From: a virus
IMG/VR virus record: IMGVR_UViG_3300037041_000399
Location: 1-64,000 of that record
DNA: 64,000 nucleotides
Reading direction: 5' to 3' (one strand)
Every line of letters starts with the position of its first letter. Position 1 is the first letter of the stretch. This document shows positions 14,029 to 55,540 of the stretch, piece after piece. Below the pieces are notes generated by a model. That model had not been told where the DNA came from and did no database searches. It saw only the letters and a list, made by a program, of their open reading frames with translations. The translations under genes were made by a program, and so were the position numbers.

Positions 14029-15621
14029 ATGACAGGCGTCGTTAAAACAGTAGCAGATCCTTGCCAGACGTACCTTCATTTTATATCTTCTTGGGCCAAA
14101 AGTCGCGCTGTTTGTAACGGTGAACGTGCAGTTAAAGAGATTGATAGCTCTTTAGATTTAATCAGAATGACAAATCTATTGTTACCATTCTCTCCCTCCA
14201 TGAGCGTTAGACAGTACGAATTCTACAAAGCAGAAGCAGAATTGCCAGGCATTACAGCACAATTTGCTAAGATGCTAGTAGGTGGTATGTTGAGAAAACC
14301 CCCTATTATTGAATTACCTGAGAATGCGCCTGAAGAAGCATTAGACTGGCTTACTAATAACATTGGTAGAGATGATTGTACTCTTGTAGCTTTCTTAGAT
14401 GATATCTTATGGGAAGAAGTACAGACTTCTAGAGCATGGATATTTGTAGATTATCCTAATGTAGAAAATCCAGATGCACTAGATAAAGAAGTTAAAGATC
14501 AAATTAAACCATATCCTATCTTGCAAAAAGCTGAAACAATTATTAACTGGTCTACTACAACAAATATGTTTGGCAAGACAGTATTAAATCGTGTTATTGT
14601 AAAAGGATATATGGATGATTATTCTGTAAACGAATTTCATGCCACTCGTGTGCCTGCTGTTTGGGTACATGAATTAGATGAGAAAAATGAGTACAGAATT
14701 AGAATTTATGCTGGTACTGTTGCAGACAATGGTGACCAAACAATTAAGCCAGGGGATGCTGCTAGTAGAGGCGATCGTTTATTACCTTCAGGCGGCTTTG
14801 AGTTAGTAGCAGTTTTAGACAGCATTATGTCTAATGGTGAAAAATTAACTCACATCCCTGCATGGCCTTTGAACGGCAATATCACTCCTGTAACACCCTT
14901 GTTAGCACCTATTGTTGACAAAGAAATTAGCTTGTACAATAAGATTAGTAGACGTAATCATTTATTATATGGTGCTTCTACGTATACACCTGTTATTGCA
15001 TCTGATATGCCAGACGAAGAATTTGAGGATATTGTGAATTCTGGATTAGGTGCTTGGATACGACTAAGACAGGGCGATACAGCGACTGTACTAGAAACGC
15101 CTACAGCAGCTTTAGCAGATATGCAGGCGGCTATTGCAGCTACTATGGATGAGATGGCTAAGCTTGGTATTAGAATGCTAACAACAGAAAACGAACAATC
15201 TGGTGTTGCGTTAGAGATACGTAATGCCTCTCAGACCGCACAGTTAGCTGTTTTAAGTACTAAAATATCAAATACAATGAAGCAAGTTATTTGCCTAATG
15301 CTTAACTGGCGTTATAACTTAGATTGTGAAGCTTGTGATATTACATTTGAGCTGTCTGCAGATTTTGATCCAGTACCATTAGGCGCTGATTGGCTAAACT
15401 TAATTACACAATGGTATCAAGGCGGATTATTGCCAAGATCTGTTTGGTTACAAATGTTGAAAGCTAATGATATTCTAAATGCTGAATATGATGACGAAGA
15501 GGCATTAGCAGAAGTTAATAACGATCAGCAAATTATCCCTGCTGCAACTAAATACAATGATCAGTATGCCTTGCAAACTGAGGCAGCTGCAACTGGAAAG
15601 GCCTCTGCGCCTAAGGAGTAA
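14029..15621 (+). CDS. Portal protein (DUF4055-like)
   Basis: 530 aa, directly before the MuF and capsid genes; GMLRKPP, RAWIFVDYP and ESGVAL-like (QSGVALEIR) segments. Confidence 0.8.
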   Translation: MTGVVKTVADPCQTYLHFISSWAKSRAVCNGERAVKEIDSSLDLIRMTNLLLPFSPSMSVRQYEFYKAEAELPGITAQFAKMLVGGMLRKPPIIELPENAPEEALDWLTNNIGRDDCTLVAFLDDILWEEVQTSRAWIFVDYPNVENPDALDKEVKDQIKPYPILQKAETIINWSTTTNMFGKTVLNRVIVKGYMDDYSVNEFHATRVPAVWVHELDEKNEYRIRIYAGTVADNGDQTIKPGDAASRGDRLLPSGGFELVAVLDSIMSNGEKLTHIPAWPLNGNITPVTPLLAPIVDKEISLYNKISRRNHLLYGASTYTPVIASDMPDEEFEDIVNSGLGAWIRLRQGDTATVLETPTAALADMQAAIAATMDEMAKLGIRMLTTENEQSGVALEIRNASQTAQLAVLSTKISNTMKQVICLMLNWRYNLDCEACDITFELSADFDPVPLGADWLNLITQWYQGGLLPRSVWLQMLKANDILNAEYDDEEALAEVNNDQQIIPAATKYNDQYALQTEAAATGKASAPKE

Positions 15622-15623
15622 AA

Positions 15624-16187
15624 ATGAAAAGTGTAAGAAGAAGTATGGCTCTTAAGGGCAATACAAATGCTAAAGGAGCTAGAGGTGGCGCTACTGTTGG
15701 TGCTATTGGCGGTTTATTTGGTGTACCAGGCTCTTTAGTGGCTGGTATGGTTGCACAGAATCATGCCAACAAGTCATTAGGCACAGCTAATAAAGCACAA
15801 GGCGAACGTGTTCTTAGTAGACAACGTAAGGCGTCAACTGGAATCGGAGCAGCTTCTGTAGGCGCATCGATTGGTTATAAGTCGGCGATGATGGCTAGTC
15901 CTGCAACAATGCTAGCAGGTTTTAAAGGTGGCTCTATGATATCGAGTGCTGCGTTAGCTTCTGGCGTTGGTATGACAAAAGGAATGGTTGTTGCTGGAGT
16001 AGGCGGTGCTGTTGCAGGTGCTATTATTGGTGGCGGTATGAATTACTTAGCCTCTCGTGCTGGTTCTGCAATTATTGGAAGTCCTGAGAAAAAGAAAAAT
16101 GTAGCGCGTGATGTAAAAGCACTACAAGCACACATGAAGGCAGGTAAACCCTTATCTGCCACTAAGATGACTAAACTCGCTTATTAG
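15624..16187 (+). CDS. Basic Gly/Ala-rich protein (possible internal virion/ejection protein)
   Basis: GxxxG-rich hydrophobic stretches; located between portal and MuF-RNAP. Confidence 0.45.
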   Translation: MKSVRRSMALKGNTNAKGARGGATVGAIGGLFGVPGSLVAGMVAQNHANKSLGTANKAQGERVLSRQRKASTGIGAASVGASIGYKSAMMASPATMLAGFKGGSMISSAALASGVGMTKGMVVAGVGGAVAGAIIGGGMNYLASRAGSAIIGSPEKKKNVARDVKALQAHMKAGKPLSATKMTKLAY

Positions 16188-16195
16188 GTTTAAAA

Positions 16196-19100
16196 ATGGC
16201 CGTTAATGCTAACACACAAATTTATGACAAGACGCTAGATCGTGCTGCAATGACACGCCTTTATGAAAGAAGAGTCTCCGGAAAAGTAGATTTAATCATT
16301 GATGGCCATGTCCTACGTCTTGACAAATTAATAAAAGCTTTTGAAAGTATGAACCCCTTTCGTAAAGAACTGGATAGAGAACTTACAAAGACTTACAAAA
16401 ATGTAAATAATACTGTACATAAAGACTTATTGTCTTTAACAACAGACCAGTTATCTTTTGCCTATCAAAAGGTGGAAGTAGCTATGGGTAATATTTGGCG
16501 TACAGAAAGACCTAAGCAAAGAGTTGCAGAAGAAATAGCACTAGCAAATCCACTTCACAAAAACCAAACAATGGAACAAGGTTGGAGTGGGATTGCTAAT
16601 AATGAAAAGATTAGACTAGAAGCTGTAATACGTAAAGGTATTGCTGACGGAAAGACAATGGACCAGATAGCTCTTGAAGTTCGTACTGGTAATGTACATA
16701 AGATTACAAGAACACAAGCTAAGGGTTTAGTTATTACTGCTGTTACTTCTGTGTGCTCTCAAGCTGATCATGCAATCTATAAAGCAAATGGTAAAGCCTT
16801 ACAAGGGTGGCAATATGTATCTGTTCTTGATGCTCGCACAACCCCTATCTGCGCTGGTCGCGATGGGCATATTTATGACATTTCTGATACTGTACATCTC
16901 CCTCCAGCTCATTGGCATTGTCGTTCAACAACTACTCCTGTGTTTAAATCATGGGAAGATATGTCAAAGCTTGAAGGAGTTGCACAGGTTCGTAAACGAA
17001 ACTTAGCAGGACTTACGGATGATCAGAAAGCCTTTTATGATGGCAATACACCATTAAGAGAAAGTTATAATGACTGGCTGCTAAGACAACCTCAAGACAT
17101 CCAATTAAGACACTTAGGTGATTATAAAAAAGTTAGTATGTTTAATAGTCAGCAGTTAACTTTAGACAAATTTACGAATGATGAAGGCAATACTATTGGT
17201 ATTACTGAACTGAGACGTATGACGGACTCTACGTATACTCTTCCAAATGATACACAAAAGTTTGCTAATGCTAAAGCTAAATTAGATGCGATGCAATTAC
17301 ATGCAACAACGCCTGAAGCCTTTTATCAAGATACAAAATTAGTAAATACATTAAGAGATTATTATTTATTACAAGCTGGCGAATTAGATGGTACTCTATC
17401 CCTCACAAACTATCGCGGTTCCCTCTTACATACCAAGAAGGCTACCAAATCACGAGTACTCAACAGCTTGCCAACAGAAGAGCAAACAATCTTCAATCCA
17501 GTTACAGGTCGTTACGAAGACGTCAGATTGTACCAACCAAACGTTGAGGTATTAAATAATAACCTAAGATTACTACGTGAAAGCCCTGTATTAAAGCAAG
17601 AAGATAAAGACTTCATTGAGAAGTTTATTGGCAGTCTTGATGAAAAGATGGGTGCTAATGAAAGAGCTGCTGTAGCAGATAATCTTCGTATTATATTCAC
17701 TAGGTTCCGTAATAACGGAGAGCAATGGGGTAACTTCAAGGCTGTAGTACAAGGTCAGATTAAGTTTGATGTAATGAATGTATCAGATTCTCTTGAAACA
17801 CAATTAAGAAGAGATACTGATGTACTTAAGAAATTAACGCAAGACAATTACATTGACCCTATACTAGGCCCTACTCAGCTACAAGATCTTCATGATAATT
17901 TTATCAACAATATTCGTGCTAGAAATAACTGGGAAGATAGTGTTGCTCCTAAGATTGCTAGAGAATTACGCAATGTATTTGATTACAAGATACCTATTAA
18001 ATTAAAAAGAATGCCTAATGGCAAAGAACGATTATCAGAAGCTGATTTAGATCAATTTTATTTACGATTTGCGCACAGATTAAGTATGGCAGATATGCCG
18101 GATAGAGATCAATTTGCAGTTGCATTAGGACGTGACTTATATAATATGTCAGGCTTAAATGGTAATCGCAAAGAATGGTATGATTTAGGGATGTCAATGT
18201 TAGAAGCAAAGAATGTTACTAAGTTCTTTGAAGTAGAAACATTTGGCGTTCAAAAGCGAAGAATGAAAAGCAGATTGAGCAACAGTCTGTTTGGCCCTTA
18301 TTATGACACTCTGTCATATAACATACGGGTTACTGATCCTCGTGTACAAGAGTATGCGCAGCTCACAAGGAAAGTGGAAGTCGGCCTACGTGTTGGCGTT
18401 ACATCTGAGAAGAACAAGTTGCTATTCCGCGAGGGTTATAAAACGTACTTTATTGACAGAGGTCTCCTAGGTTTAGAAGATACTCGTATTCCCATTACAT
18501 CTACAAACAGCTTTAGTGATTTTCCTGAACAATTTGTTGATAAGAACCTAGCTAATGCTTTAAATTGGGCATCAAAGTCTAAGTATAAAATTGACGAAGA
18601 TTTTTATGATTTTACAAAGAAATTATTGTACTTCGAAGATGATAGAGGCAACGCTAAGAAGTATAACGAATTGAATGAATATAAACACTATATTTCTTCT
18701 AGGGGAGATGCCTATGAAAGATTCAAATCGATGGACTGGTTACGGACACGAGGATATTCTTTTAGTAATCATGCTTTTGTTGACCATCGTGCTCGTATAT
18801 ATGATCGCGGACTCATTAGTCCTCAGTCAGGAGAGTCCTTCAGACCATTCCTTAATACCGAACAATCAAAAGTGTTGGGTGAGGCTGGATACAGAAACTT
18901 CAGAGACCAAATAGGTGCATTTATGGGCGGTCTTAATGATACTTTTGAAGGGCGATATAATTCATTATCCTTTACTGGTAGACAAAAGATTGCTGATAAG
19001 CTATGGCCAGATATGGTAGATATTGGCAACAAGATGCTACGTGGTAAGCCTGCTGATCTTCGTGCTATATTAGAATCAGAAATGGTACAATTAGTAGATG

Positions 19101-21511
19101 GTGAAGAACTAGGCAAGTTCTTTAGGTTTGCTATGGAATCAGCTAAGATAGATAATCATTTAAAAGCTGGTGGTACTATGGAAGACTATAAGACAGCCTT
19201 AGCTTTAGAACAAGATGCTTCATCTTCTGGTGCTCAAATTATTGCATTAACAACAAAGAACAAACAGTTAGCTGAATTATCTAATGTTGTACCTACAAAT
19301 CAAAAACGTAGATTGTACGATGAGATTGCTGCTGCCACTTATAATGATCCTCGTTTTAAAGTATTAAACGAGAAGTTGGGGTTAAATGAAAAAGATTTAC
19401 GGAAGGCGGCTAAAGCTCAGAACATGGTTACTTTTTATGGTGCAGGTGAACGAACTGGCATCCTTAATGTGGAAGGCAAGCTCGCAAAGATTTTGGAAAA
19501 GGCACCTGCAAAGCCTATAGAGGTTAAGGTAACAGAGGGTTTGTTATCTGAAAGACAAGACTCAGCTGGTTTACTACGTGTATTAGGTGTTGAAAACAAA
19601 ACAGATCCAAATTATGTAGGGACTCCCGAAGAGATTATTAAAGCTCAAGGTGATCTAATTGCTAAAGCTATGAAAGGTAAGTTATCTCCTGCAGAATTAA
19701 AAGATACATTTAAATGGTTACATACTGCTGATATTGAATTGACAGATGCTCGTAGAGAAAGAGCTACATATAAAACATTTGATCATAAGACTGGTGAAAA
19801 ATTCTCTAAAGAAAAGATAGCTGAAAATAAGGCTAAATTTGAACAGCGCTCAAAAGGCGATACTAAGAAATATATTGCTATGCAAGTTGTAGAAGAACTC
19901 GGTGAGTTTTTGGATGAGCATTTAAAATCTTTAAATGTCCCTTCCAATTCAAGAGCTTTTAAATTACTAGAAGCTCAAAAGCGTATCTTAAAGTCAAATA
20001 GATTTGGTGAAGACACTATTATTAAAGATGAAGCTAGTGTTTATAATTTAAAGACAAATAAACAAGCTGCTGAAATGGCTTTAGAAGATGCAGAATTTAC
20101 CGTTGCTACAGCTGATACTGAAAAGACTATAGCAGATCTTAACTTAGCATTACAAGAAGAATTAGTCAATGTAACTAAAAAGCCTGAATCTTTTGCATCT
20201 ACTTTAGTTGTTAAAGCATCTGATCGTGATAAGGTACTTAATGAAATATCTGCAAGAGCAGCGAGATACGAAAGGTTTGACCCTGAAACAGCTAATGAGC
20301 TTAAAGAACTCAGAGCGAATGTACGAGATATCTTTAATAAAGGTCAGGATCCTGGCGACGATATTATGGAAGCGCTCTACTTCCTCGATCCAGAGACTAA
20401 ACAGTTAGTTGAAAAGATGTCTCATCAATATGGCAGAGTCGTAACACCTGCTGACTTCCAAGCTATTGCTAAAATTATGTCTGAACAGTTAAGTGAGCAA
20501 GTACCTATCTTAAAAGACTTTACTAAGTTCTTTGGTAGACTTGCTGAAGACTTTTTAATTAACTCTAAGCCTTCTAAATCTGCATTTGATTGGAAAGATA
20601 TTGGTGCTACTGGTATTCTAGGCACACGTAAGAGAGGTTATGTACTACCTGATCGTGTGAGTGAAATACTAGGGTTAAAAGCTGGTGAGCCTCTGTCTGA
20701 AAAGTTTTTGAGCAGATTTAACGGATGGAAACCAGACGGACCTTTATCGGACTTACTATTTGGTGTTAAAGCACCAGATAATAGACGTACAGGTTTTAAA
20801 GTCTTTAAATTAGAACCTATTGAAAAAGCAACTATATCAAAAGGTTTTGAAATATTCTATGCAAATAAACTTCCTACGTCATGGACTAATGTGCCTTGGG
20901 TTAATTTTGACGGTAAAATTATCGAACAAAATTTCACTCAGACATTTGAGGAGCGTCTAGCTTATAAGGATAAAGACGGGAATTGGGTTAACAATATACT
21001 ACAAATACCTCAAAAGACAGAAGCTACATGGTGGGAACAAGTCGTAAACGCAGATGGGAAAATTAATGATATCGCAGACGCAGGAAAAGCAAGAACAGCT
21101 TTTGCCGTTAACGGGAACCATTCCAACGACGCCACATTGGTCAAGAATTTCCATTTGTGGGGAAAGGAAAATGATATTGCCACAAGTACAATCCACGATG
21201 CCTTCTTTGCAAACGCAGCAGATATGCTCAATGCAAGAGCAGGGATTAGAAAGTTGTATGCACGAACTCTTGATGCGTCACCCGTCTTATCTACTCTGAA
21301 TGAGATGAAAGCTCGCGGGTTGCCTAAAGAACTATATGATCAGTACTTACAAGAAGCTATTGACAAGGGATTAATACCTGTAGAAGGGGTGTCCGTTGTT
21401 GGCGGCAAAGTACTAAAGAAATCCGATATTCTCACCAAAGAGAATATTATGTCAGATATACCTGATCCTACTAAATTTGAGGATGATTGGGGTTTTTATG
21501 GCATAGGCTGA
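16196..21511 (+). CDS. MuF (SPP1 gp7-like) minor head protein fused to a T7-family single-subunit RNA polymerase
   Basis: N-terminal MuF motifs WQYVSVLDARTTPIC and PPAHWHCRS; C-terminal RNAP motifs DHRARIY (18782), QDASSSG (motif A, 19214), RKAAKAQNMVTFYG (motif B, 19400), NHSNDA, IHDAF (motif C, 21191). Confidence 0.88.
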   Translation: MAVNANTQIYDKTLDRAAMTRLYERRVSGKVDLIIDGHVLRLDKLIKAFESMNPFRKELDRELTKTYKNVNNTVHKDLLSLTTDQLSFAYQKVEVAMGNIWRTERPKQRVAEEIALANPLHKNQTMEQGWSGIANNEKIRLEAVIRKGIADGKTMDQIALEVRTGNVHKITRTQAKGLVITAVTSVCSQADHAIYKANGKALQGWQYVSVLDARTTPICAGRDGHIYDISDTVHLPPAHWHCRSTTTPVFKSWEDMSKLEGVAQVRKRNLAGLTDDQKAFYDGNTPLRESYNDWLLRQPQDIQLRHLGDYKKVSMFNSQQLTLDKFTNDEGNTIGITELRRMTDSTYTLPNDTQKFANAKAKLDAMQLHATTPEAFYQDTKLVNTLRDYYLLQAGELDGTLSLTNYRGSLLHTKKATKSRVLNSLPTEEQTIFNPVTGRYEDVRLYQPNVEVLNNNLRLLRESPVLKQEDKDFIEKFIGSLDEKMGANERAAVADNLRIIFTRFRNNGEQWGNFKAVVQGQIKFDVMNVSDSLETQLRRDTDVLKKLTQDNYIDPILGPTQLQDLHDNFINNIRARNNWEDSVAPKIARELRNVFDYKIPIKLKRMPNGKERLSEADLDQFYLRFAHRLSMADMPDRDQFAVALGRDLYNMSGLNGNRKEWYDLGMSMLEAKNVTKFFEVETFGVQKRRMKSRLSNSLFGPYYDTLSYNIRVTDPRVQEYAQLTRKVEVGLRVGVTSEKNKLLFREGYKTYFIDRGLLGLEDTRIPITSTNSFSDFPEQFVDKNLANALNWASKSKYKIDEDFYDFTKKLLYFEDDRGNAKKYNELNEYKHYISSRGDAYERFKSMDWLRTRGYSFSNHAFVDHRARIYDRGLISPQSGESFRPFLNTEQSKVLGEAGYRNFRDQIGAFMGGLNDTFEGRYNSLSFTGRQKIADKLWPDMVDIGNKMLRGKPADLRAILESEMVQLVDGEELGKFFRFAMESAKIDNHLKAGGTMEDYKTALALEQDASSSGAQIIALTTKNKQLAELSNVVPTNQKRRLYDEIAAATYNDPRFKVLNEKLGLNEKDLRKAAKAQNMVTFYGAGERTGILNVEGKLAKILEKAPAKPIEVKVTEGLLSERQDSAGLLRVLGVENKTDPNYVGTPEEIIKAQGDLIAKAMKGKLSPAELKDTFKWLHTADIELTDARRERATYKTFDHKTGEKFSKEKIAENKAKFEQRSKGDTKKYIAMQVVEELGEFLDEHLKSLNVPSNSRAFKLLEAQKRILKSNRFGEDTIIKDEASVYNLKTNKQAAEMALEDAEFTVATADTEKTIADLNLALQEELVNVTKKPESFASTLVVKASDRDKVLNEISARAARYERFDPETANELKELRANVRDIFNKGQDPGDDIMEALYFLDPETKQLVEKMSHQYGRVVTPADFQAIAKIMSEQLSEQVPILKDFTKFFGRLAEDFLINSKPSKSAFDWKDIGATGILGTRKRGYVLPDRVSEILGLKAGEPLSEKFLSRFNGWKPDGPLSDLLFGVKAPDNRRTGFKVFKLEPIEKATISKGFEIFYANKLPTSWTNVPWVNFDGKIIEQNFTQTFEERLAYKDKDGNWVNNILQIPQKTEATWWEQVVNADGKINDIADAGKARTAFAVNGNHSNDATLVKNFHLWGKENDIATSTIHDAFFANAADMLNARAGIRKLYARTLDASPVLSTLNEMKARGLPKELYDQYLQEAIDKGLIPVEGVSVVGGKVLKKSDILTKENIMSDIPDPTKFEDDWGFYGIG

Positions 21512-21560: not shown

Positions 21561-22025
21561 ATGGAAATTACACAAGACTTCTTGAAAAAGAATTATCATT
21601 ATGGAGATGGATTTTTATATTCTATTACTACAGGAAATTTAGTGGGTCATTTCAATGGGAGTGGGAGAGTTCAAATTACAATAAGACTAAATGGCAAAAA
21701 GAAACAATTTTATGCTCACCGTCTTATTTTCCTCTATCATAATGGGTATTTACCAGAAATTGTAGATCATATTGATAGAGATCCTGCTAATAATAGAATA
21801 GAAAATTTAAGAGCGGCAACACCAACAGAAAGCTCTTGTAATAGGATTACACCAAATGCTTCAGGCTATCCTGGTGTAGATAAGTATAATAAAAGATGGC
21901 GTGCAAAAATTAGATATCAAAATAAATATATACATATAGGATATTTTGATACACCTGAAGAAGCTTATAAAGCTTATAATACAACACGTCTAGAATTACA
22001 TGGCGAATTTGCGCCACAAGGGTAA
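21561..22025 (+). CDS. HNH homing endonuclease with C-terminal AP2 domain
   Basis: YAHRLIF..VDHIDRDPANNRIENLR (HNH), then GYPGV..RWRAKI..IHIGYFDTPEEA (AP2). Confidence 0.9.
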   Translation: MEITQDFLKKNYHYGDGFLYSITTGNLVGHFNGSGRVQITIRLNGKKKQFYAHRLIFLYHNGYLPEIVDHIDRDPANNRIENLRAATPTESSCNRITPNASGYPGVDKYNKRWRAKIRYQNKYIHIGYFDTPEEAYKAYNTTRLELHGEFAPQG

Positions 22026-22180: not shown

Positions 22181-22196
22181 CCCGTTAAATTAACCC
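22181..22196 (+). promoter_or_regulatory. Class I motif, copy 3
   Basis: Exact CCCGTTAAATTAACCC upstream of scaffold/capsid; flanked by the inverted repeat GGGAGAC/GTCTCCC. Confidence 0.75.
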
Positions 22197-22265: not shown

Positions 22266-22281
22266 CCCGTTAAATTAACCC
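22266..22281 (+). promoter_or_regulatory. Class I motif, copy 4
   Basis: Exact 16-mer, 85 bp after copy 3 across an AT-rich spacer. Confidence 0.75.
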
Positions 22282-22363: not shown

Positions 22364-23011
22364 ATGTCTACCGAAACTGATGAAACAAAAACACAAGAAA
22401 CTAATACTCCTGCTCCGGATAGTACTACTACCACTCCTCCTGTGGATGACGTGGACAGCAAAATCCAAGAAGCACTTAAGCCTATCAAATCGAAACTCGA
22501 TAACGCGTATAAAGAGCGTGACGAAGCTTTAAGAAAAGCAGCAGAGTATGAACAGAAAGAAAAAGAAGCTAATATAGCACGTCTACAAGAAGAAGGAAAA
22601 CACAAAGAAGCTTATGAACTTCAGTTGGCAGAAGCTAATGCAAAATTAGAGGCTGTAACAAAGCGTAACATAGAGCTTGCTCGTGATGCAGAAATTAAAT
22701 CTGTATTAGCAAGTTATACGCTTAGAAATGATAAAGCTCGAGATATGGCCTATATGGATATAGCTAGCCAACTTGTACAAAATGAACAAGGTGTCTGGAT
22801 TCACAAGAGTGGTGCTGATCTTAGAACGTTTGTAAAACAATTTTCTGAAAACGACGATAATTCTTTCTTGTTTAAACAAAAAGCATCATCAGGTGCAGGT
22901 AGCACTTCATCTAGTACTACGCCTTCTACTGACACAAAACCGAAATCAATATTTCACATGTCTCAGGAAGAGGTACTAAAACTTGCGGCGGAAGGAAAAC
23001 TACGCCAATAA
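22364..23011 (+). CDS. Capsid scaffolding protein
   Basis: Acidic, charged coiled-coil with a low-complexity linker; directly upstream of the capsid gene. Confidence 0.75.
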   Translation: MSTETDETKTQETNTPAPDSTTTTPPVDDVDSKIQEALKPIKSKLDNAYKERDEALRKAAEYEQKEKEANIARLQEEGKHKEAYELQLAEANAKLEAVTKRNIELARDAEIKSVLASYTLRNDKARDMAYMDIASQLVQNEQGVWIHKSGADLRTFVKQFSENDDNSFLFKQKASSGAGSTSSSTTPSTDTKPKSIFHMSQEEVLKLAAEGKLRQ

Positions 23012-23030: not shown

Positions 23031-24251
23031 ATGGCTGCAACAAGCGTTAACTATACCAGCGGAACATCTGGTAATAATAACAATTATGTATTACAAGAAG
23101 CTATTGGTGCTTATAGCGATGAAGCTTACACCACTGCTCGTAAACTTTCTGGTACTGGAATCACATCTAGCAACCCACAAATTGATACTAACACAGAAAC
23201 CTTTATTGGTCAAATGCGTTGGTTAAAACCTTTAAATCCAACTATCAATATTGCGTCTTTAACAGATGCTACTGATGGTGCTAAAACTAACTATCAATCA
23301 GAATTTAGTACTTACATTAAAACTGTTCGTACTCATGGTGCTGAAAAAGTCAACATGACTGAAGTAGTTACACGTCAAGATGGTTTAGCTAAAATTGGTC
23401 GTGACTTTGGCGAAACTCGTGCGCAAGACGAACACAATGCAATTCTTTCTGTATTGAAAGGTGTTGCTATTTCTGAAGCACTATTAGGCACTGGCACAGG
23501 CGGCTTAGGCGGCCAAACTTTCACTAATGATCCTACAAGCATGAACAACGGTTTCTACGTTGATTTAGGCTCTACAGGTAAAATTGTTAGTGCTAATGGT
23601 GTATCACCTGCTGGTGTTGCTAACTATGCATACCAAGGTGCATCACGTGCAGAAAGCCTTTTAAATGCGTTCGGTCAAGCTTTCAAAGACTACGAACCAG
23701 AATGGGCATACTTAGCTGTGTCTCCTGAAGTATTAGCGTCTTTCCGTTCAGCTAATTTCGTTGATGAAATTACTATTACCGAAGGCAACATGAACTTCCA
23801 AACAATCTTCAATGGTAAATTCCGTTTGATTGTTACACGTGCTAACCAATCTTTAAGCACTGATGAATTGACTGCCCTTAACTTAGGTGCTGGTGTTGAC
23901 ATTACAGGTACTAAAACCTCATTTATTATCTTACCTGGTGCTATTGCAATGGAATCATTAGCAGTGCCTGATTCTACTGAAGTATACCGTGATGCTAACA
24001 AATACAAAGGTGGTGGTGTTACTTCTGTCTGGTCACGTTGGGGCTATGTATTAGCACCTGCTGGTTATGACTGGAATGGTGATGTAACTAAATTCCCAAG
24101 TGATTCTGATTACTCTCAATTCCGTGCTGCTGGCGCAACTGTTGCTGCTACTGGTGTTAATGCAGGTAACCGTGCAAGTGTACAAGGTGCTTGGAAACGT
24201 AAAGCGTCTTCTGCATTGTCTTTAGGTATCTTGCCTGTATTCCATTCTTAA
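23031..24251 (+). CDS. Major capsid protein
   Basis: 406 aa after the scaffold, TAAGGA RBS, strongly biased codon usage, followed by head-tail genes. Confidence 0.8.
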   Translation: MAATSVNYTSGTSGNNNNYVLQEAIGAYSDEAYTTARKLSGTGITSSNPQIDTNTETFIGQMRWLKPLNPTINIASLTDATDGAKTNYQSEFSTYIKTVRTHGAEKVNMTEVVTRQDGLAKIGRDFGETRAQDEHNAILSVLKGVAISEALLGTGTGGLGGQTFTNDPTSMNNGFYVDLGSTGKIVSANGVSPAGVANYAYQGASRAESLLNAFGQAFKDYEPEWAYLAVSPEVLASFRSANFVDEITITEGNMNFQTIFNGKFRLIVTRANQSLSTDELTALNLGAGVDITGTKTSFIILPGAIAMESLAVPDSTEVYRDANKYKGGGVTSVWSRWGYVLAPAGYDWNGDVTKFPSDSDYSQFRAAGATVAATGVNAGNRASVQGAWKRKASSALSLGILPVFHS

Positions 24252-28153: not shown

Positions 28154-31100
28154 ATGTCAGGTATAGTCATCGAAGTCGAAGCAAAGGTATCCCAAGCAGA
28201 GACTTCATTAGAACGATTAAACGATGTAGTACGAAATATCACAGCAAGCCTTAAAGCTGTTGATAAAGGATTGGAAAATCTATCACTTAAGAAAGAAGTT
28301 CCATTAGACAAAACAGAGAAAGCTTTAAATAATTTATCACCTAAAATCGATAAGTTGCAAAGCAGCACTGATAAGTTATTTAAAGGTTCTTCTAATGTAG
28401 ATAATCGATATTCAAAGGAATTTGTTAATATTGGTGTATCTGCAGAAATGGCAGGTAAGCGAGTAGAAAAGGCTTTTAATGATATTACATTAAAACCTAA
28501 CGATGCTGCATTAAAAAGTTTTTCATTTGAAATTGATAGAACATCTAGAAAGATATCTAAACAAATGTCAGAAGGTATTTCTAAAAAAGATCTTAGAGAT
28601 ACTGAAAGTAGTCTATTAAACATAAATAAAAGTATTACAGGTATTTCAGGTAATATTACAAGTGCCGTTGGTTCTATTGGTACTGCAATTGCCGCTTTTG
28701 GCTCTATTGCTACCATTGGAATGTTTGTAAAATCACTATCAGATATTACGTCATCTTTTACTGAAATAGAATCTAAGATTGCAATGGTAACAGGGCGTAC
28801 TGTTGCATTCTCAGAAGCACAACAAGCACTGTTAAAAGTTGCTGCAGAGACACGTACTACCTATGGAGCTACTGCAGATGCCTTCTCAGGTGTTGGGCGT
28901 GCTATGAAAGACGTTGGGGCAACTAGTGAGCAACTGTTCAGAGTTACTAAGGTATTGCAGCAATCGCAGGCGTTGTCTGGCGGCTCGTCAGAGGGCTTTA
29001 AAGCGGCAATGATGCAGTTGAATCAAGGCCTTTCTTCTGGCGCACTACGGGGCGAAGAACTCAATTCTGTGCTAGAACAGGCACCTGCTATTGCAGACGC
29101 ACTTGCGCGGTCTTTACACGTTTCTGTAGGCGCATTAAAAGGAATTGCTGAACAAGGTAAACTAACAACTTCAGTAGTTTTCAGTTCATTGCTAAAGCAA
29201 GCCGATTATATTAATGATAAATTCAAAGCTATTAACCCAACGCTAGGCAATGCAATGGAAGCTGGCTTTGAAGGTGCTAAACGATTTGCCTTTGAATTAG
29301 ACAAAGGATTAGGTCTCTCTCAAGATCTTGCAAAAGCTGTTTCTAAACTAACATCCGGGTTAGGCACAAAAACCAGTGGCATTAGAGTCTTTGCAGCTGA
29401 CTTTGATGTACAATTAAAAGAAGCAATTATACGTGTTAAATCGTATATGCAGCCTTTGACACAAGTCGTTACAGCACTGGGGCAAGAATTTTATAGAGTA
29501 TTTTCTTCTTGGAAAATTCCAGAAGGTTCCCAAAAGCCTCTAGATGATCTGATACGTAAGTTTACAATATTTAAATTTGTACTTACGCATACAGACCCTG
29601 GAACAGATACTAAGATTTTATTTAGAAAAGTAGAAACTGCAATTGTAGACAGTGTAAAAACTATCAGTGATTTATTAGATAAGGGGATAAAACTTAGCGA
29701 TAAGTTTATTATGCCTATTATTGATAAGATTAAAGATTTGTATCCTAAAGCCAGAAAAGCGTTATTAACAACCCTAGATGGTCTCAGAAGTGTCATAAAA
29801 GAATCAATGTCAGTACTTGCTGACGGCTTTGAAATTGGTGCTGAATTTGTTAAACCTATTATTAGAGAGTTGACTAAGCTGCCAGATCAGCTAATACTAA
29901 TTTTTAATAAAGTAGCCAAGGCTTTAGGTAGTGCTGCTTCTGCTACCAGTTCGCTTGCTGATGGCGTTGCAGATTTATTAGATTCTGTTACCCTTAAAGT
30001 AGGTGATTTAGACGGTATTTACGAGTACTTAAATAGCTTTAAAGATAAAGTAATTACTATCTTCTTTAAAATATGGGATGCAGTTATTGGCCACTCATGG
30101 TGGACTGATACAATTGATAGTATTATAGATACTTCCAAGTCTCTTTGGGAAAAAGCTTCTCCTGGCCTTATACGCTTTAGAGATAGTATAATTGCGTTAT
30201 TTAAAACTATTGCTAGTACGGTTACTACAGCATTTAATGATGCTATGGTTAAGCTTAATATAGAACCTAAATCAGTCTCATTTAAAATACCAATAAGTAT
30301 AGATGATGCTAAGGTACAATTTGAAGGCGTGTATGACAGCTTTGTAAAAACGTTTGATAAATTTAAAGATGATTTCCCTTTACTATTCAAAGCAATAGCA
30401 GCAGGCGTTGGTGCGATTCTTGTAGGAATGTTCTTACCTTCTGGCAATTTTGTATTATTGCTTGAAGCAGCTTTAATTTCAGCTTCGATTCAAAGTGCTA
30501 CAATGTTTGCAGAAACAATTGGCAGAGACTTAGGGGACGCAAGCCTTTTAGCTGGTTTAGGTAATAACTTAGGTGCTGCAGCTGGAAAGCTCTTTGCATC
30601 ATTCCTTGCTAATATGCCACTACTTGTTAGCGCATTCCTTGGCTTTATTAGTGAATTTACAAAAGAATTCTTAAAGCAATTACCTATCATTGGAGTGGCA
30701 TTTAAAGCTCTCTTCGGAATAGCTGGTGCCTTTGGCATGGCAGGGCCTTTAGGTCTTGTAGGTGCTATATTCTTCGGCAGAGGTATATTAGGCATAATGG
30801 CAACATTTGGCTTTTATACTGAAGCGATAACGGGCTTCATGGCAAAAATGGCAATTCTTGGTAACTTCTTTGGAGGCGGTGGCGGGTTAATCTCTAGGTT
30901 ATTATTTGGAGCAGGTAGAGCTTGGCATTTTCTTCCTATATTAGGATTAATAGCATCTCTATCAGGTGCTTTTGATGCATTGTATAATGATTCTAGTCTG
31001 AGTGCTTTAATCATTAATGGCGGTTTAATCTATTTTGCAATCTTTGGTAAAGGCGGTTTAGCTGGATTTGCTAAAATAGGTATGTTAGTTCGTGCTAATA

Positions 31101-34100
31101 TTGTAGGCATACTATCAGAGTTTACTGCAACAGCAGGATTAGCATCTAGTATTGCAGCTGGCGGTGCCTTTGGTCCAATGTTAATGGCTGGTATTCGTAA
31201 TTTCAGAAACTTCTTTAGAGGTGTTTCTGCGATGTCTGCAATGTTTTTCTCTTCTTCATTGAGCAGTTGGGCACAATACTTTACCAGATGGATAGCAGTT
31301 ACAGGCTTTTCTGGCAATATACTTAGATTCTTTAGAACCTTTTATTTAAATATCTTTGGTCCAATTACTGCAGCCTCATATTCCTTTGCACCGTTAGCAC
31401 AATCTTTTGTAGCTGCAATTAGTGCTATGAAAGCAGCTGCTGTAAGCTTTATAATGACTGCAAGAACTGCAGGTATTGCGATGGGCGGCTGGCTTGCTGC
31501 ACTGACAAGAATGTTATTAGGTGGACCAGGGATTTTAATACTTGTTGGATTAATTGCTTCTTTATTTAGCAAATCAGCTGATGCTGCTGAATCCTTTAGA
31601 GAAGAAAGTAACAAAGGTTTCTTTGAAAACTTAACTGATAATATTGCTAATCTTGATATTATAGGCTATTTTAGAGGACTGAAAGATAAGCTTGATGCAA
31701 TTGATTTTGGAGGGATGCTTGGTGTAAACTTTAAAGTCTCTATATATGCTGCTCTAACAGCAGTCACTGCGGCTTTAATGCTGTTTAGTACAAATGTACG
31801 TAAAACACTTATGCTCTTGGCTGGCGACTTGTTAGTATTTTCAGGTAAAGCTTTATTCAGCATTGCAGCATTATTTAGTCCTGTAGAAGTTTTAGCAGCT
31901 GGCGCACTATTGCTCAAAGCAGGCTGGTGGGCTGGTGTAAACCTCAATAGAGGTTTAACAATGGGCTTTGCGCTTAAAGATACTATTATCTCAATTATTA
32001 TGAGACTTCAGGCAACAGCAGCTTTAGCTGGTGCAATGAGAACCTTGGGCATAACAATGGCTGTCGGATTGTTAGGAGCGTTTTCTGCAGAGGCTATTGG
32101 ATTTGCAGACTTCTCAGCAATGTCTGTGTTAGGCTTTACTGCAATTGCCGCATTTATTTATCCTATTTTAAACGGTTTAACGGTGATTCCTGCTGCTATT
32201 ACTGCAGCATTTACTGGCGGTACGATTATGCAAGCTATTGGTGTATTATCGGCTAGAATATTATTGATGTTTGCACCATTAGGCTTAGCTGCTGCAGGTG
32301 CCTTTGCAGGCGCATGGGCAGGTGGCCAGTTTGGTGATGACATGGCTATGATAGGTGGACTTGCTGGCGCTTTGTTAGCCTTTAAGTTTACTGAATCAAT
32401 TATGACAGGTATCACTGAGTTCTTGGCTGTTGGTGCAAGACTCATGACATTAGGTTGGGTAGGTTTAGCCTTAACAGCTGCTGGACTTATTTATGCATGG
32501 TTATTTGGTAGTGACAGTACTTCATTATCACAAGATTTAGATAGTATAATTGAAAAGACTCGTACGCTGTTTGGTATGAAACCTAATCCTGTTGATTTTA
32601 GAACTGGATTGCGTTTAGATGATTTACAAGCAGCTGCAACAATGGGTATTAAGATTGATTATAAAATTGATCCTATTAGTGCTGCATTAGCTTCTGACTC
32701 CTCCAAAGAAGCTGTAACAAAAGCCACAGAAGATTTAGCACAGGCTATTAGAGATGCAAAAGCAGATTGGGATATTTCAGGTTTAACTCAGGATCAAAGA
32801 GATCTATTACAGAAGAAAGTAAAAGCTACTGCAGCTCGTGTTGATGCCGCTTCTGCTTCTACGCCTTTTGTATTTAAAGACTTTGGAAAGAACTTGACCC
32901 AAGCTCAAAGATATCGTCCAGATACTCTTTGGGGGCAATTGCAAAGACAAGGTGCACAAGCAGCTTTAGATGCTGAGTTTGAAGTTAAATTAAAGCAATT
33001 GTCTATAGCAAGTAGAATGCCATGGAACCAGACATCAGCTGCTAGATTAGATCTTAAAAGCCAAAGAGATGCAGTTTCTCTTTCTAAAGATACTACTTAC
33101 AATGCTAACTATTCTCCATTAGATGCTGAAACAGCTAAGTTAGCGCAACTTACAAAAGGCTTTGATAATCTTGGCCCTGTTGGTCCTAAGATGATGGCGC
33201 ATCTCAAAGATACTGGTAGAGAGATTATAGCTCTAACTAAGCAAATAAATGAGAATAAGTATTGGTTCTGGGAGCACCCTAACGGTAAGATATGGGAAAA
33301 TGCTGCTCCAGATCCTAAGCTAATTGCACAAATGAAAATGCTTCGTGCAGAGTATAAATCAACTGCAGAAGATATTGTGCGTTATAGTACTCTCATGAAA
33401 GCTGCTCAATCTTTTGCAGGCAGAATAAGTTCTATTGCTAGCAAGTTTGATATGAAAGGTGTTGAAAGTAAATTAGACACTAATAAAATATTTGCTAATA
33501 GTGACACTGCTGTTAATCGAATGGAAAAGCTTGGTGAAGCTGCTGAAAGACTTTCTAAAAGCCTTGAGGGTGTATTTGATGTAAAAGCTAAGAATGATAT
33601 TATTCTTAATATTGAAGAAGTTGTTAAGCAGAAAGAAAGACTTAAAGAAGATTCTGTACAGTCTTACAAGTATGCATCTCCTGTAATACCTAAGATGGCA
33701 GAAGAATTAGGATTAGGTGCAGGCAAAGCAGCTGCAGGATTACCTGAAAATATATCAGGCCCTGTATTAGCACGTATGACTGAATTAAAAAGACAACGTG
33801 AAGACTTTTTAAATAAGCCAGTTAGACCTGTAAATCCTGATTTAGTGCCTCAAGACTTTGTAAAAGAAACTGCGCAAAATAAGCATGAAACAATGGTATA
33901 CCAAGGTGATATGCGCCTTTGGCAGACCCGTAAAAAGAACCAAGAAACTGTTATTAAAACACTTGAAGAAGAGTTTGCAAATAATAAACTAGGTTCTACG
34001 CAAGCTGCATTAATTCAGGCTAAAAGAGAAGCCACTAAGATCCAGATGGAGGAGCCTGTTAAGCCAGCATTAGCAATGCTAGATGCTAAAGCACAACAAG

Positions 34101-37100
34101 CTAAAATGGAAAAGCTTCGTATTGAATACAAACAGAAATTAGAAATCTATAAGAATGATAATTTTGAGTATTTTGATAAGTACATGAAGAATCTTGTTGA
34201 GTCTTTTGATCTTGGTGACGAGTTACGTAAAGAGCTTTGGAGCAATGTCAAAACAAAACCAGGACAAATGGCGGATGTTGCTAATAAGCTTAATATTGAT
34301 ATTGGCGATTTGTATAGTACATTTGGTGCTGATGTAGCTGCAGGCTTACTACAACAAGCTGATGATGTTGCTGCTGCTATTGATCGTGCTATGGCTACTC
34401 AACAGTACGATAAACTACCAGCCTTAAAGCAACGTAAGGCCGCATTGACAACTAGAATGGCAACCCCTGAGTTTAAATCTCGTGGTGCTATGGCAGAATC
34501 AATGGGACTTGATCAGAGTTTAATCCCTGGTATTAGCACAGACGTTTTAGATTCGTTAGAAGCTGGTTACAAAAAGATTAAAGAAATTGATACGTATCTT
34601 GAGATGAACAAGAATACTATTAGCGATGCCACTTATCAAGCTAAGATACAAGAGAAGTTAAATGAACAACTCTCAGGAAAGAAAGCTGCGTTAGATGCTA
34701 GCTTTGGAAGACCTTCTTTTGAACTTCAAGCACGTATAGGAACTAATCTTACGGGTGCTCAGTTATCATTAATCTCACAAACAGATGTAGATAACTTAAA
34801 AGCTGCTGAATTAAACTTAGCTAAAATTAAATTAGACTTAGATGGTTCAAATGCTAATGCAGATACTTTGACAGACTATTTCAAAGCACTAGCAGATGAA
34901 GCTGAAGCTCGTTATCAAGCATCTCGTAATGCTGCATCCAAAACAGGTGCAGGAATGATGCAATCACTAGCTGATGTTAATTTTAGTGGTGCTAGTAAAC
35001 TTAACTTGTTACCTCCTGCAATTGTACAAAATGTAATTAAGCTTAGTAACTATATTAAAGATCTTAGACATAATCTAGAACAACCAACCTCTCCTGAAGC
35101 TTTTATTGCAATTAATAAAGAAATTGCTAAAACAGAAGAGGCGTTAAGTTCTATCAGAGATCAGTATACTAGTCTCCAAGACAAAATTAGTTCTGTCAAT
35201 GAAGTGTTTGGCGTTAGCTTTAGTAATATTGATTTTGTATCGTTAGGCTCTTCTTTGACTAGCACTTTGATAACTGTTGCTCAAAGTCTTAAAACAGAAC
35301 TTGCAAAAGAAATGGAGAAAGGTTTCTTAAGCGTAAGAGCTGAGAGTATTATTAAGGTATTAGATAGCTTAACTACAACTGGTACTTACTTAAAATTCTT
35401 TGCTGACTTTAAGAAAAATGCTAGAGAAAGTTTAACAGATGGAATGAAATCTGCTTTTGATAAGATTAAATCAATTGCACCTAACTTTGGCTTTAGTCAA
35501 AATCAATTCCAAATGATGGATAAAGGTTCTCGTGACCAATATTCCAAACAAGCTTCTGACATAACTGCATTAACAGCTATTCAAGGGCTAAATGGTTTAA
35601 CACAGAATCAAACAGATATCATCAATCAAAAACAACCTGTTGATGAAATGATGAAGCAACTGATTGATTCGTTTGATACTAATCAGTTAAAACAGTATGA
35701 AAAGCTAACTTCATCTCCTGTAGATCTTCAATTAAAAGCTGCTGATATACAATTAGAAGCTGCTAAAATGAACCTGGAGGCGGTTAAAGGCAAGGCACCT
35801 GAAGTAACAACACCTTTCAAAGAAGCTTCTAAGCAAACTACAGAAAGAGCTTTAGCCACAGGCCCACGAAGTGGTGTAACTTCATTAGCTGAAATGGCTA
35901 AGGATATTCCTTGGTCAGCTAATGCGCCTAAGCCTAAATTTAGACCTGATGTAGAACGGTGGGATTCATTAATACAAGACGCAGTGAAAGAATTTCCACG
36001 TGTAACAGTAGAAATGGTTAAGGCCGTTGTTGAACATGAATCTCGTGGATTAAATATTAAGTCAGGCATTACTCCAAAACCAGGTTATAAAGAAACCTCA
36101 TTTGGATTAGGTCAGTTTAATGATGCTACTGCTAAAACATTTGGAGTTGATAAGACAGATCCTGCGTCTACAATAAGAGGTATTGCACAATATTTATCTC
36201 TAAATATGAAAACGTTTGGAAATACTCGTGATGCCTTTAGAGCATATGCCGTTGGGCCGACAGGTGCCAAACAAGGTTTAGGTCAAGATAAAGCTGATGA
36301 GTTTATGACTACATTAGCAACTGGACGTGCGCCTAAATCTGCACCTGTAACTACTTCTCCTGAGCTTATAAAGCCTACTGCTGAATCTGTTGCTAAATCT
36401 ATTGAAGTCGCTGTTTCAAAACAAGGGGAGCTTAGCAGAGCTTTCAATGTAGACCTCATGGCTAGGATTAAAGAAATAGGTAAACAGAAACCGTTTGAAG
36501 CATATCAATTGGATAAACTTCAAAATCAGATTAACCCAAATGTTAGTACTCCAGCAGAATTATTATCTACTCATGGAGCTAAACTTGGCACTGATATTGT
36601 CGGTCAGATGAATGAAACTCAGATATCTTTGGCTACATCTCTTAACGAAAAATTGATGCAAGTTCAGCAACAATTTAATGCAAATCCAAGTACAGCTTTG
36701 CAACAAAGTATTACTACATACTCAGAAATGTTAAAAGCATTTACTGAAGGTGTTACAGCGGATGCTGAAGAGCTTGGTATAGCTAAGATGGTTGCATTCT
36801 CTTCTGCCAATTCTACCAACATCAGTAAATTCTTAAGTAGATTTAGCGGTATCAGTGAAGAACTTGTCATGACAATGAATGAAGCTGATAAAGCTTTAGC
36901 AAAGAATATGACAATTATTCGTGAGGATCTAAAAGATAAGCTAGCAGCTGACGCTAAAGCTGGTAAATCAACTACTGCTACTGCACTTAAAATATTAGAT
37001 TTAAGCGATAATATTTCAGACCTAGGTAATAAGGCAATGGATGCAGCTAAAGAAATTAAAACAGCTGGTGAGTCTTTTGCTTCTGGATTTACATCTTCCT

Positions 37101-40266: not shown

Positions 40267-40895
40267 TGATCATTTTATCAGATCATAATATACAAATGTT
40301 AGAGACTCCCGGTGCATACGCAATATTTGTGGTATCAATTTTAAATAAGGATAATGAAGTTATTTATGCTTCTACTACTCACTTTTCAGATATTATTATA
40401 CCATGTGCATCTTTATTTAGTACGCCAGTCAAGGATTTAGGCGGTTATGTAATTTCCAATATGACGTATATTGCAGATGGTTCTCTAATGGCTTTACAAG
40501 CCCCTAAATTATCAACTTCAGTGGATAGAGAGCAATATAGTTTAAACATTGTGGATCCAGACTTACTTATTATTGCTGCAAAATATAATGGTCTTATTGG
40601 CTGTAAACTGAAGGTTGCATGCTTGTTTGCCTCTAATAGCAATATTAATATAGCTAAAGAAAATTTATTAATAGTGTATGCGGGTAGAATTACAGGCACA
40701 ACACATACAAGAAAAACTCAACACCAAGGAGAGTCATTTTTGACTATTATAGGCGGTTCTCCAATGTATAATTTAGATCAAAAGAATGGTATTTATTTTT
40801 CTGATCCTAAAGTTAAAGAAAGAGACCCTCAAGATACTTGCGCAGAAAGAGTTTATATATCATCTAGAAACTATGCTTTACATTGGGGAAGATAA
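40263..40895 (+). CDS. Tail tip/hub protein
   Basis: Between the Dit-like and J-like genes; ends in DTCAE..LHWGR. Confidence 0.5.
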   Translation: MMIILSDHNIQMLETPGAYAIFVVSILNKDNEVIYASTTHFSDIIIPCASLFSTPVKDLGGYVISNMTYIADGSLMALQAPKLSTSVDREQYSLNIVDPDLLIIAAKYNGLIGCKLKVACLFASNSNINIAKENLLIVYAGRITGTTHTRKTQHQGESFLTIIGGSPMYNLDQKNGIYFSDPKVKERDPQDTCAERVYISSRNYALHWGR

Positions 40896-51745: not shown

Positions 51746-51770
51746 GCCCTGACTTCGGTTGGGGCTTTTT
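51746..51770 (+). terminator. Intrinsic terminator
   Basis: GCCCTGAC-TTCG-GTTGGGGC followed by TTTTT. Confidence 0.75.
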
Positions 51771-52459: not shown

Positions 52460-52475
52460 CCCGTTAAATTAACCC
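52460..52475 (+). promoter_or_regulatory. Class I motif, copy 5
   Basis: Exact 16-mer at the start of the early-gene block. Confidence 0.75.
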
Positions 52476-52510: not shown

Positions 52511-52545
52511 GCGGAAATAATAGTATCTTATATGAAGTACTATAA
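52511..52545 (+). promoter_or_regulatory. Class II motif, copy 1 (putative early promoter)
   Basis: GCGGAAA-TAATA-GTATCTTATATGAAGTAC-TATAA, 20 nt before an ATG. Confidence 0.65.
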
Positions 52546-53621: not shown

Positions 53622-53656
53622 GCGGAAAATGGGGTATCTTATATGAAGTACAATAA
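53622..53656 (+). promoter_or_regulatory. Class II motif, copy 2
   Basis: GCGGAAA-ATGGG-GTATCTTATATGAAGTAC-AATAA, intergenic. Confidence 0.65.
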
Positions 53657-54784: not shown

Positions 54785-54795
54785 AGGATATTATT

Positions 54796-55053: not shown

Positions 55054-55056
55054 TTT

Positions 55057-55534: not shown

Positions 55535-55540
55535 AACAAA

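Follow-up and report, generated by a model that had tools for sequence, protein, structure and literature searches.

Why should a phage join an RNA polymerase (RNAP) to a minor head protein? The question is raised by one open reading frame (ORF), termed here the MuF-RNAP fusion, in the first 64 kb of the 78,236-bp IMG/VR virus record IMGVR_UViG_3300037041_000399, which is rated 100% complete. These 64 kb, the whole stretch of DNA analysed, are referred to as the window, and they come from a long-tailed freshwater phage. An earlier interpretation made from the letters of the DNA (the sequence-only reading) proposed that MuF serves as a packaging tag, by which an RNAP is loaded into the head and injected for host-independent early transcription. 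The analysis presented here shows that the ORF encodes a genuine three-part protein, consisting of a MuF/SPP1-gp7-type head protein, a conserved middle region and a single-subunit RNAP. By analogy, its probable use is in a relay of polymerases resembling that of phage N4, set in a siphovirus, with packaging achieved by fusion to MuF.

The N-terminal part is assigned to MuF by profile and by position. Its Phage_Mu_F match exceeds the curated cut-off of 29.6 bits, and the gene lies in the head module beside the portal gene, with one 187-aa ORF between them. The strings WQYVSVLDARTTPIC (aa 205-219) and PPAHWHCRS (aa 236-244), quoted in the sequence-only reading as a MuF signature, are both found, and residues C219, H239 and C242 are invariant in two alignments of relatives (A1 and A6). 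This is the single MuF match in the whole 78-kb genome. The middle region that links MuF to the polymerase is assigned to no family and is kept in alignment A1 down to the Naomviridae. A complex prediction for the portal protein (530 aa) with the MuF part (aa 1-400) gave scores of 0.00, 0.49 and 0.00 and is counted neither for nor against binding.

The polymerase part is recognized by two profile collections. The Pfam profile RNA_pol (PF00940) matches the ORF with E 1.8e-11 and 44 bits, against a curated cut-off of 22 bits, and the PHROGs family "RNA polymerase" matches aa 861-1092 with E 7.5e-22. In a search of the PDB with the family profile, T7 RNAP is found with E 1.5e-22 and the N4 RNAPII (6dt7) with E 1.5e-6. 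Residues R865, R867 and Y869 of the T/DxxGR-type motif are invariant in A1; so are D1007, K1073, Y1081, G1082 and H1642, and D1668 is nearly so, among relatives down to the 31%-identical protein of phage DSS3_VP1. An AlphaFold2 (AF2) model of aa 600-1771, made from a 55-row alignment, has a mean predicted local distance difference test score (pLDDT) of 80.9 and a predicted template modelling score (pTM) of 0.77. Foldseek places it with T7 RNAP elongation complexes (E 7e-13). With VIA-align it superposes on T7 RNAP with Z 30-31 and a root-mean-square deviation of 3.5-6.3 Å over 520-560 residues, and on the yeast and human mitochondrial RNAPs with Z 29-30.7, at 16-18% identity in these structural alignments. 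The T7 alignment spans model residues 79-1172 and T7 residues ~227 to the last, 883. With regard to the promoter-recognition elements (specificity loop, AT-rich recognition loop and intercalating hairpin), a few of the superpositions extend to T7 residues 82-107, and large insertions lie between motifs B and C. The fusion protein ends in ...FYGIG, at exactly the place where T7 RNAP ends. The C-terminal carboxylate of T7 RNAP lies at the active site, and the free C-terminus that this type of enzyme requires is consistent with MuF being attached at the N-terminus.

The profile match, both catalytic Asp residues, the Lys, Tyr and Gly of motif B, the T/DxxGR motif and a right-hand fold with its C-terminus at the T7 position are all present, and the fused polymerase is very probably, as judged from its residues and model, an active RNAP. 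The main structural claims of the sequence-only reading are borne out: the ORF is uninterrupted over its 1771 codons, every catalytic motif quoted is intact, the MuF and RNA_pol profiles both score above their curated cut-offs, and the predicted structure is a complete T7-type fold (Z 31). One figure needs correction. The polymerase part had been put at the C-terminal ~1000 aa, and it is really ~1150 aa long because of the insertions.

A degenerate polymerase, which no longer catalyzes and merely extends MuF by a structural or DNA-binding part, should also be considered. The strong divergence of the protein would fit it, since a phmmer comparison with T7 RNAP gets no better than E 0.096, and so would the large insertions between motifs B and C. 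Against this, all catalytic residues are kept across relatives at 20-37% identity, including the Tyr that in T7 RNAP discriminates ribo- from deoxyribonucleotides; the fold matches that of T7 RNAP to the last residue; and the reading frame is preserved by self-splicing introns that sit at catalytic motifs in some relatives. Loss of catalysis is accordingly held to be very improbable.

The fusion is found well beyond the window. A word-indexed protein search returned 372 clusters; of the clusters listed, nearly all combine PF04233 with PF00940 and have a length of ~1540 aa. An exhaustive protein search returned 158 clusters at 50% identity. Among 29 distant members, which share 16-37% identity with the first one (P0135), 27 carry Phage_Mu_F. 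Short matches without MuF also occur among the 158 clusters (P0148, P0160 and others), and these may be fragments or true stand-alone genes. A megablast search of the phage collection with the fusion gene gave no match. Relatives are encoded on 390 IMG/VR stretches, and where a locus spans the full length the protein is one uninterrupted ORF of 1536-1878 aa in 51 of 58 cases. The other seven are interrupted at codon ~1083-1088 (six loci) or ~1419 (one locus), and none between MuF and polymerase. The cultured roseophages DSS3_VP1 and DSS3_PM1 (Naomviridae) have the fusion too, under no other annotation than "minor head protein-like protein" (1463 aa); that of DSS3_VP1 is 31% identical to the window protein, and the gene order is shared with the window phage. 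On these comparisons the fusion is real and old. An assembly or gene-calling artefact that joined two genes, which the sequence-only reading had itself raised as a risk, has a negligible chance of being the explanation and is already refuted: nothing was found in its favour, and the same ORF recurs in contigs that are independent of one another, in both of the sequenced isolates and across several databases.

The breaks in the interrupted loci are group I introns. The Rfam family Intron_gpI (gathering score 50 bits) matches with 89, 74 and 56 bits in loci L128, L084 and L103, and an insert in EBPR siphovirus 1 scores 40.5 bits, below the gathering score, and has an HNH ORF inside. The usual intron site is between NMV and TFYGAG of motif B; in L103 the intron is at the HSNDA motif. 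Group I introns typically home into conserved sites, and their positions exactly at motif B and the HSNDA motif lend support to selection for catalysis, as far as sequences can indicate it. No RNA family scores above threshold in an Rfam scan of the window, and therefore the window copy of the fusion gene is without an intron. The L084 gene is 98% identical to the window gene yet bears an intron; thus the window copy is an intron-less allele. Coordinates of the fusion, its parts and the other features discussed are collected in the table.

Table. Location of the MuF-RNAP fusion, its motifs, and associated genes and sequence elements (positions are those of the window unless otherwise indicated).
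Feature	Residues (aa)	Position (nt)	Strand	Remarks
MuF-RNAP fusion ORF (P0001)		16196-21511	+	1771 aa, uninterrupted
MuF / SPP1 gp7-type head-morphogenesis region	53-380	16352-17335	+	PHROG 241 "head morphogenesis", E 4e-58
Pfam core, Phage_Mu_F (PF04233)	142-246	16619-16933	+	E 1.3e-13, 52 bits
Middle region linking MuF to polymerase	~381-614	17336-18037	+	helical, small beta elements
T7/mitochondrial-type single-subunit RNAP	~615-1771	18038-21508	+	C-terminus coincides with that of T7 RNAP
T/DxxGR-type motif, VDHRARIYDRG	862-872	18779-18811	+	aligns with T7 MDWRGRVYA
Motif A, LEQDASSSGAQII	1004-1016	19205-19243	+	D1007 on T7 catalytic Asp (..FDGSCSGIQH..)
Motif B, RKAAKAQNMVTFYGAG	1069-1084	19400-19447	+	K1073, Y1081, G1082
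Lineage-specific ~230-aa helical insertion module	~1103-1335	19502-20200	+	after motif B
NGNHSNDA motif	1639-1646	21110-21133	+	aligns with T7 NFVHSQDG
Motif C, TIHDAFF	1665-1671	21188-21208	+	D1668 on second catalytic Asp of T7 (LIHDSFG)
RNAP2, stand-alone T7-like RNAP		55793-58012	+	739 aa; PHROG 414, E 5e-121; PF00940, E 1.8e-69
Class 1 promoter-like motif, CCCGTTAAATTAACCC		245-260, 345-360, 22181-22196, 22266-22281, 52460-52475, 60765-60780; 74859 outside window	+	exact 16-mer
Class 2 promoter-like motif, GTATCTTATATGAAGTAC, copy 1		52523-52540	+	in the cluster of small genes that precedes RNAP2
Class 2 promoter-like motif, copy 2		53634-53651	+	upstream of RNAP2
Hairpin with 14-bp stem and T11 run		55541-55600	+	terminator-like; between class 2 cluster and RNAP2
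Other GC-rich hairpins with T runs		51746-51770 (5 T); genome 78040-78125 (16 T)		bounding transcription units
Introns in relatives		L084 7224-8102; L128 7188-8108; L103 8219-8974; L001 9179-10126		positions in the loci of the relatives
Portal protein		14029-15621	+	PHROG 145, E 2.6e-57; upstream neighbour of MuF-RNAP
187-aa ORF		15624-16187	+	between portal and MuF-RNAP
HNH endonuclease, free-standing		21561-22025	+	PHROG 99, E 2e-54; directly 3′ of fusion gene
Scaffold		22364-23011		after HNH endonuclease in gene order
Major head protein		23031-24251		after scaffold in gene order
3826-aa ORF		28154-39634	+	tape-measure position; candidate by position

The phage encodes a second polymerase, RNAP2, which the sequence-only reading had overlooked. 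It shares no more than 22-24% identity with the fused enzyme, in two short stretches around motifs A and C, and this rules out the fused polymerase as a recent duplicate of RNAP2. DSS3_VP1 holds the same pair of polymerases in the same gene order, with its RNAP2 homologue at the same position. The idea of host-independent transcription by one enzyme must be changed to this extent: the polymerase of the fusion is complete, as had been supposed, but with RNAP2 the model becomes a relay of two polymerases.

Two classes of promoter-like motif accompany the two enzymes. The genome has seven copies of the class 1 motif, all on the coding strand; the window contains six of these, versus 0.00 expected. 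These sites precede the packaging and structural genes (245, 345) and the scaffold and capsid genes (22181, 22266), stand at the start of a small-gene cluster (52460) and precede the replication genes (60765). The core GTTAAATTAAC is a palindrome, and AATTAACCCT is identical to the start of the T3 promoter. A further element downstream, ..CCGTyyCCCC..TATwATTAT.., is common to the copies at 245, 22181 and 52460. The motif is exact in relatives whose RNAP2 is only 52-61% identical, and in DSS3_VP1 there are ~13 copies of a related motif, ATAGGGTGCGTTAAAGAGGGGG, at equivalent places.

The class 2 motif has the layout CGCGGAAAA-N4-5-GGTATCTTATATGAAGTAC and is found in two exact copies in the window versus 0.02 expected. 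Relatives have two to four copies, in the coding direction and nearly all within a few kb upstream of RNAP2. A consensus of ~30 nt, with the upstream CGCGGAAAA, holds in phages of 33-65% GC; a variant, AAGTGAGAAAA...GG(C/T)ATCTATAATGA, is found in DSS3_VP1 and two low-GC relatives. Copy 1 sits 63 bp after a class 1 site, and in relatives too a class 1 site is found shortly upstream of class 2. No class 1 site was found between the class 2 cluster and RNAP2.

This interval contains the terminator-like hairpin. An equivalent hairpin and T run precede RNAP2 in most relatives and in some abut the RNAP2 ATG, and the two largest of the GC-rich hairpins in the table share CCCTCTCT...GGGAGGG arms. Terminator-like sites are enriched in the 51-61 kb region (15 versus 5.5 +/- 2.3 expected), and sigma-70-like sites are not (36 versus 33.9 +/- 6.8 expected). 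Lake-water metatranscriptome contigs from relatives that are 90-99% alike cover much of 54.5-63.8 kb, and one of them (54504-56009) bridges the hairpin and T run; neither transcript starts nor transcript levels can be read from contigs, and some DNA may have been carried over, so that they are no evidence of read-through. Two phage polymerases and two conserved, phage-specific classes of motif are consistent with a relay.

The N4-like relay, with packaging by fusion to MuF, is the account that probably holds, and its steps may be outlined as follows. The fusion gene is in the late structural operon, and its product would be made together with the head proteins. The MuF part would then bring the protein into the procapsid at the portal, as in the case of SPP1 gp7 and the MuF-cargo fusions. 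MuF function is needed for head assembly in SPP1; if it is likewise needed here, the polymerase would necessarily travel into the procapsid with MuF, and the fusion protein being the phage's only MuF, its MuF part is expected to enter. At the next infection the protein would exit the capsid with the DNA, and the fused polymerase would transcribe the small early-gene cluster from the class 2 sites at 52523 and 53634. The RNAP2 gene would be transcribed by read-through of the hairpin and T run, and RNAP2 in turn would transcribe the replication and structural genes from the class 1 sites. A polymerase made only late is most economically explained as a provision for the next infection, as is N4 gp50. 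Presence in the virion, tethering to the portal, ejection and early transcription are proposed here by analogy with SPP1 gp7, the MuF-cargo fusions and the N4 virion RNAP (vRNAP).

The late position of the gene can also be read differently. The fusion protein may act in the cell in which it is made, for example by transcribing late genes from class 1 sites or by coupling transcription to head assembly, with RNAP2 as an early or middle enzyme whose gene is first read by the host RNAP from class 2 sites, and with any packaging incidental. The class 1 sites before the structural genes agree with this, as do the TATAAT in the class 2 motif of DSS3_VP1, the start of class 2, which looks SP6/T7-like, and the fact that RNAP2 is the more T7-like of the two by sequence. 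However, a second, late-only enzyme would bring little gain beside an ordinary T7-like RNAP, and fusion to the sole MuF, unsplit in 58 loci, is hard to explain without a role in the virion. In addition, the bipartite class 2 consensus is retained across the whole GC range, its conserved positions are not sigma-70 determinants, and sigma-70-like sites show no enrichment. A purely intracellular late polymerase is thus regarded as possible but unlikely.

Several points weigh against the relay with a packaged polymerase. An AF2 model of aa 1-700 has a pLDDT of 85 and no clear match in the PDB (nothing below E 0.19 with Foldseek, and in the wide VIA comparison Z of 8.4 or less, which is helical-bundle noise), and therefore the MuF fold of the N-terminal part is assigned from hidden Markov models (HMMs) only. 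The place of the protein in virions is deduced by analogy and not from virion proteomics, and the papers on the Naomviridae make no mention of the polymerase. A protein of 200 kDa would need to pass through a siphovirus tail. Both promoter classes co-vary with both enzymes, which bears on the assignment of class to polymerase; the class 2 start region, TATATGAAG, resembles SP6/T7 promoters and could equally fit RNAP2, and the class 2 motif of DSS3_VP1 holds a perfect TATAAT, possibly recognized by the host RNAP. The assignment may run the other way round, or the host enzyme may read class 2. Finally, read-through into RNAP2 is an assumption, since the class 2 sites are separated from RNAP2 by a terminator-like hairpin.

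A packaged polymerase might also serve mainly as a motor. Anchored at the portal or at the DNA end, it would pull the genome in by transcribing, and gene expression would be secondary. This explanation shares the evidence for packaging (conserved catalysis, a sole MuF and an unsplit fusion), and transcription-driven entry of the genome is established for T7 RNAP and the N4 polymerases. The N4 vRNAP is also described as part of the ejection machinery (PMC13434306). A mechanical role is, however, compatible with the relay and not exclusive of it. Nor can it be claimed that the early cluster enters first: the first 127 bp of the genome are identical to positions 78110-78236, a direct terminal repeat of exactly 127 bp, but this probably reflects a k-mer overlap in the assembly of a map that is circular or permuted, and not true ends. 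A mainly mechanical function is considered quite improbable.

The relay has its closest parallel in N4. Two reports describe the N4 vRNAP as an RNAP of the single-subunit type that is encoded by a late gene, resides in the capsid and is expelled into the host for early transcription (PMC13434306, PMC11445570). The late-gene position, the shared fold and a second phage RNAP, which in N4 acts next, are common to both systems. N4 gp50, in contrast, is a stand-alone protein of ~3500 aa with its own ejection domains and no MuF, in a short-tailed phage, whereas the protein described here has 1771 aa, is fused to MuF and belongs to a long-tailed phage. The genome has genes for major tail, distal tail and, by position, tape-measure proteins, unlike an N4-like podovirus. 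Structurally the fused enzyme is nearer to the T7 and mitochondrial RNAPs (Z 31) than to the N4 mini-vRNAP (3c46, Z 21.8) or the RNAP domain of N4 gp50 (9pnq, Z 14.2), and no N4-like PHROG was found among the PHROG matches of the fusion protein. Thus it is not a giant stand-alone protein of a podovirus, and the N4 mini-vRNAP is not its closest relative. N4 early promoters are DNA hairpins, whereas the candidate promoters here are linear motifs of 16-30 nt. The system as proposed works like the N4 relay but falls outside the N4 vRNAP family. Virion RNAPs of the N4-like kind occur only in N4-like phages according to Iyer et al. 2017 (PMC5512222).

In architecture the fusion resembles the MuF-cargo or polyvalent proteins, which have an N-terminal MuF, a C-terminal enzymatic domain and a portal-adjacent gene, and which are predicted to be packaged and delivered (PMC5512222, PMC7302621). 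Like MuF-toxin, MuF-ART and MuF-RelA/SpoT proteins, it is encoded among virion genes and has variable extra domains (GNAT in relatives). The cargoes listed comprise toxins, RNases, ADP-ribosyltransferases, and enzymes acting on nucleotides or peptidoglycan (PMC5512222), and an RNA polymerase is listed neither there nor in PMC7302621. Here the cargo is a template-dependent polymerase of 1150 aa and a core gene of the lineage, whereas the tips of MuF-cargo proteins are variable. The likeness to SPP1 gp7 and Mu gpF consists in the HMM match, the portal-adjacent gene and the sole copy; the protein here is about five times longer, and its binding to portal and DNA is only predicted. With the T7 and mitochondrial RNAPs it shares the fold, the T/DxxGR motif, motifs A, B and C, HSxD and a free C-terminus at the same position, and it differs from them in ~400 extra residues between motifs B and C, in the N-terminal MuF with a middle region of ~230 aa and in its location among structural genes. 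Capsid-delivered RNAPs that free early transcription from the host enzyme are also found in the crAss-like phage phi14:2 and the uracil-DNA jumbo phages AR9/PBS2. These are two-barrel or multisubunit enzymes, unrelated to the T7 family and with no fusion to MuF.

Naomviridae have uracil-DNA (PMC8323127), and the fusion and gene order are common to them and the window phage. The uracil-DNA enzymes are not: neither a Dcd-type deaminase (PF00383) nor a YfbR-type HD dTMP phosphatase (PF12917) is matched in the 78-kb genome, which is rated 100% complete. That a virion polymerase exists because of uracil-DNA is therefore ruled out for the window phage, and the polymerase relay is not a consequence of uracil-DNA.

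The sequence-only reading knew of no characterized MuF-RNAP fusion, and a literature search likewise found no paper that describes one. To that reading the present analysis adds RNAP2 beside the fusion, the two classes of promoter-like motif, the intron sites at catalytic motifs, an insert that shifts its site and the finding on uracil-DNA enzymes. Its survey of homologues extends the fusion to relatives on hundreds of IMG/VR stretches. N4-like podoviruses, crAss-like phages and some jumbo phages deliver RNAPs from the capsid, and each of these groups packages the enzyme in its own way. If the relay is real, a T7-type enzyme tagged with MuF would be a further and simpler solution, in long-tailed phages. 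The MuF "cargo slot" would then take a 130-kDa template-dependent enzyme and would not be limited to toxins. Viromes from lakes, sediments and the sea commonly contain the lineage, and since cultured members exist (DSS3_VP1/PM1 on Ruegeria pomeroyi) the prediction is directly testable. The two promoter-like motifs are concrete templates for biochemistry and may yield a new orthogonal pair of polymerase and promoter.

A wider statement is judged evenly balanced between holding and failing. According to it, a large, globally distributed lineage of siphoviruses of ~65-80 kb, including the cultured Naomviridae, delivers a MuF-fused T7-type RNAP that fires a conserved class of early promoters specific to the lineage and so switches on a second phage polymerase. 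This host-RNAP-independent relay would have arisen independently of N4, and the polymerase would also be a scaffold for inserted cargo domains (GNAT and a mobile helical module).

The window protein is ~230 aa longer than the common form owing to the helical module after motif B, which AF2 models with low confidence. The module is missing from most relatives in A1. It is found in 15 of the 80 best loci, and after motif B in all 14 of those in which motifs A and B are both found; in the remaining locus (L104) motif B was not found. In three other proteins (P0014, P0015, P0020) the same module lies before motif A instead. This pre-motif-A site holds a GNAT acetyltransferase or unrelated inserts in other relatives. 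Extra domains thus accumulate at no fewer than two permissive sites of the polymerase. No Pfam match was found for the module, and an ESM Atlas search with aa 1100-1340 gave no usable match. The module is also present in a 3748-aa protein without Pfam domains (45% identity), in a GGDEF-containing protein of 1660 aa and in a protein of 1183 aa. The variable insertions suggest that cargo domains are carried by the fusion protein as well, and domains are likewise collected by giant "polyvalent" virion proteins (PMC5512222).

All long ORFs of the window are on the + strand. The structural module is of the siphovirus type and the MuF-RNAP ORF is in its MuF slot. The slot had been described earlier as following the portal and preceding scaffold and capsid, and this order stands, except that one small ORF intervenes before the fusion gene and one HNH gene after it. 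Of 30 related loci checked, 29 have the portal gene upstream of the fusion gene, and in many relatives the two genes are directly adjacent; for this reason the intervening 187-aa ORF, for which no PHROG or Pfam match was found, looks like an insertion. The major head protein gene is followed by genes for adaptor, tail terminator and major tail proteins, with a distal tail protein farther downstream. An ORF of 2504 aa is located at 40883-48397, in the tail-fibre region. In the replication module, a SegE-type GIY-YIG homing endonuclease lies at genome positions 65182-65682 (L157 1182-1682), between the 5′-3′ exonuclease and the primase-helicase, and the module also has a ribonucleotide reductase, an ATP-dependent DNA ligase and an AAA_33 kinase.

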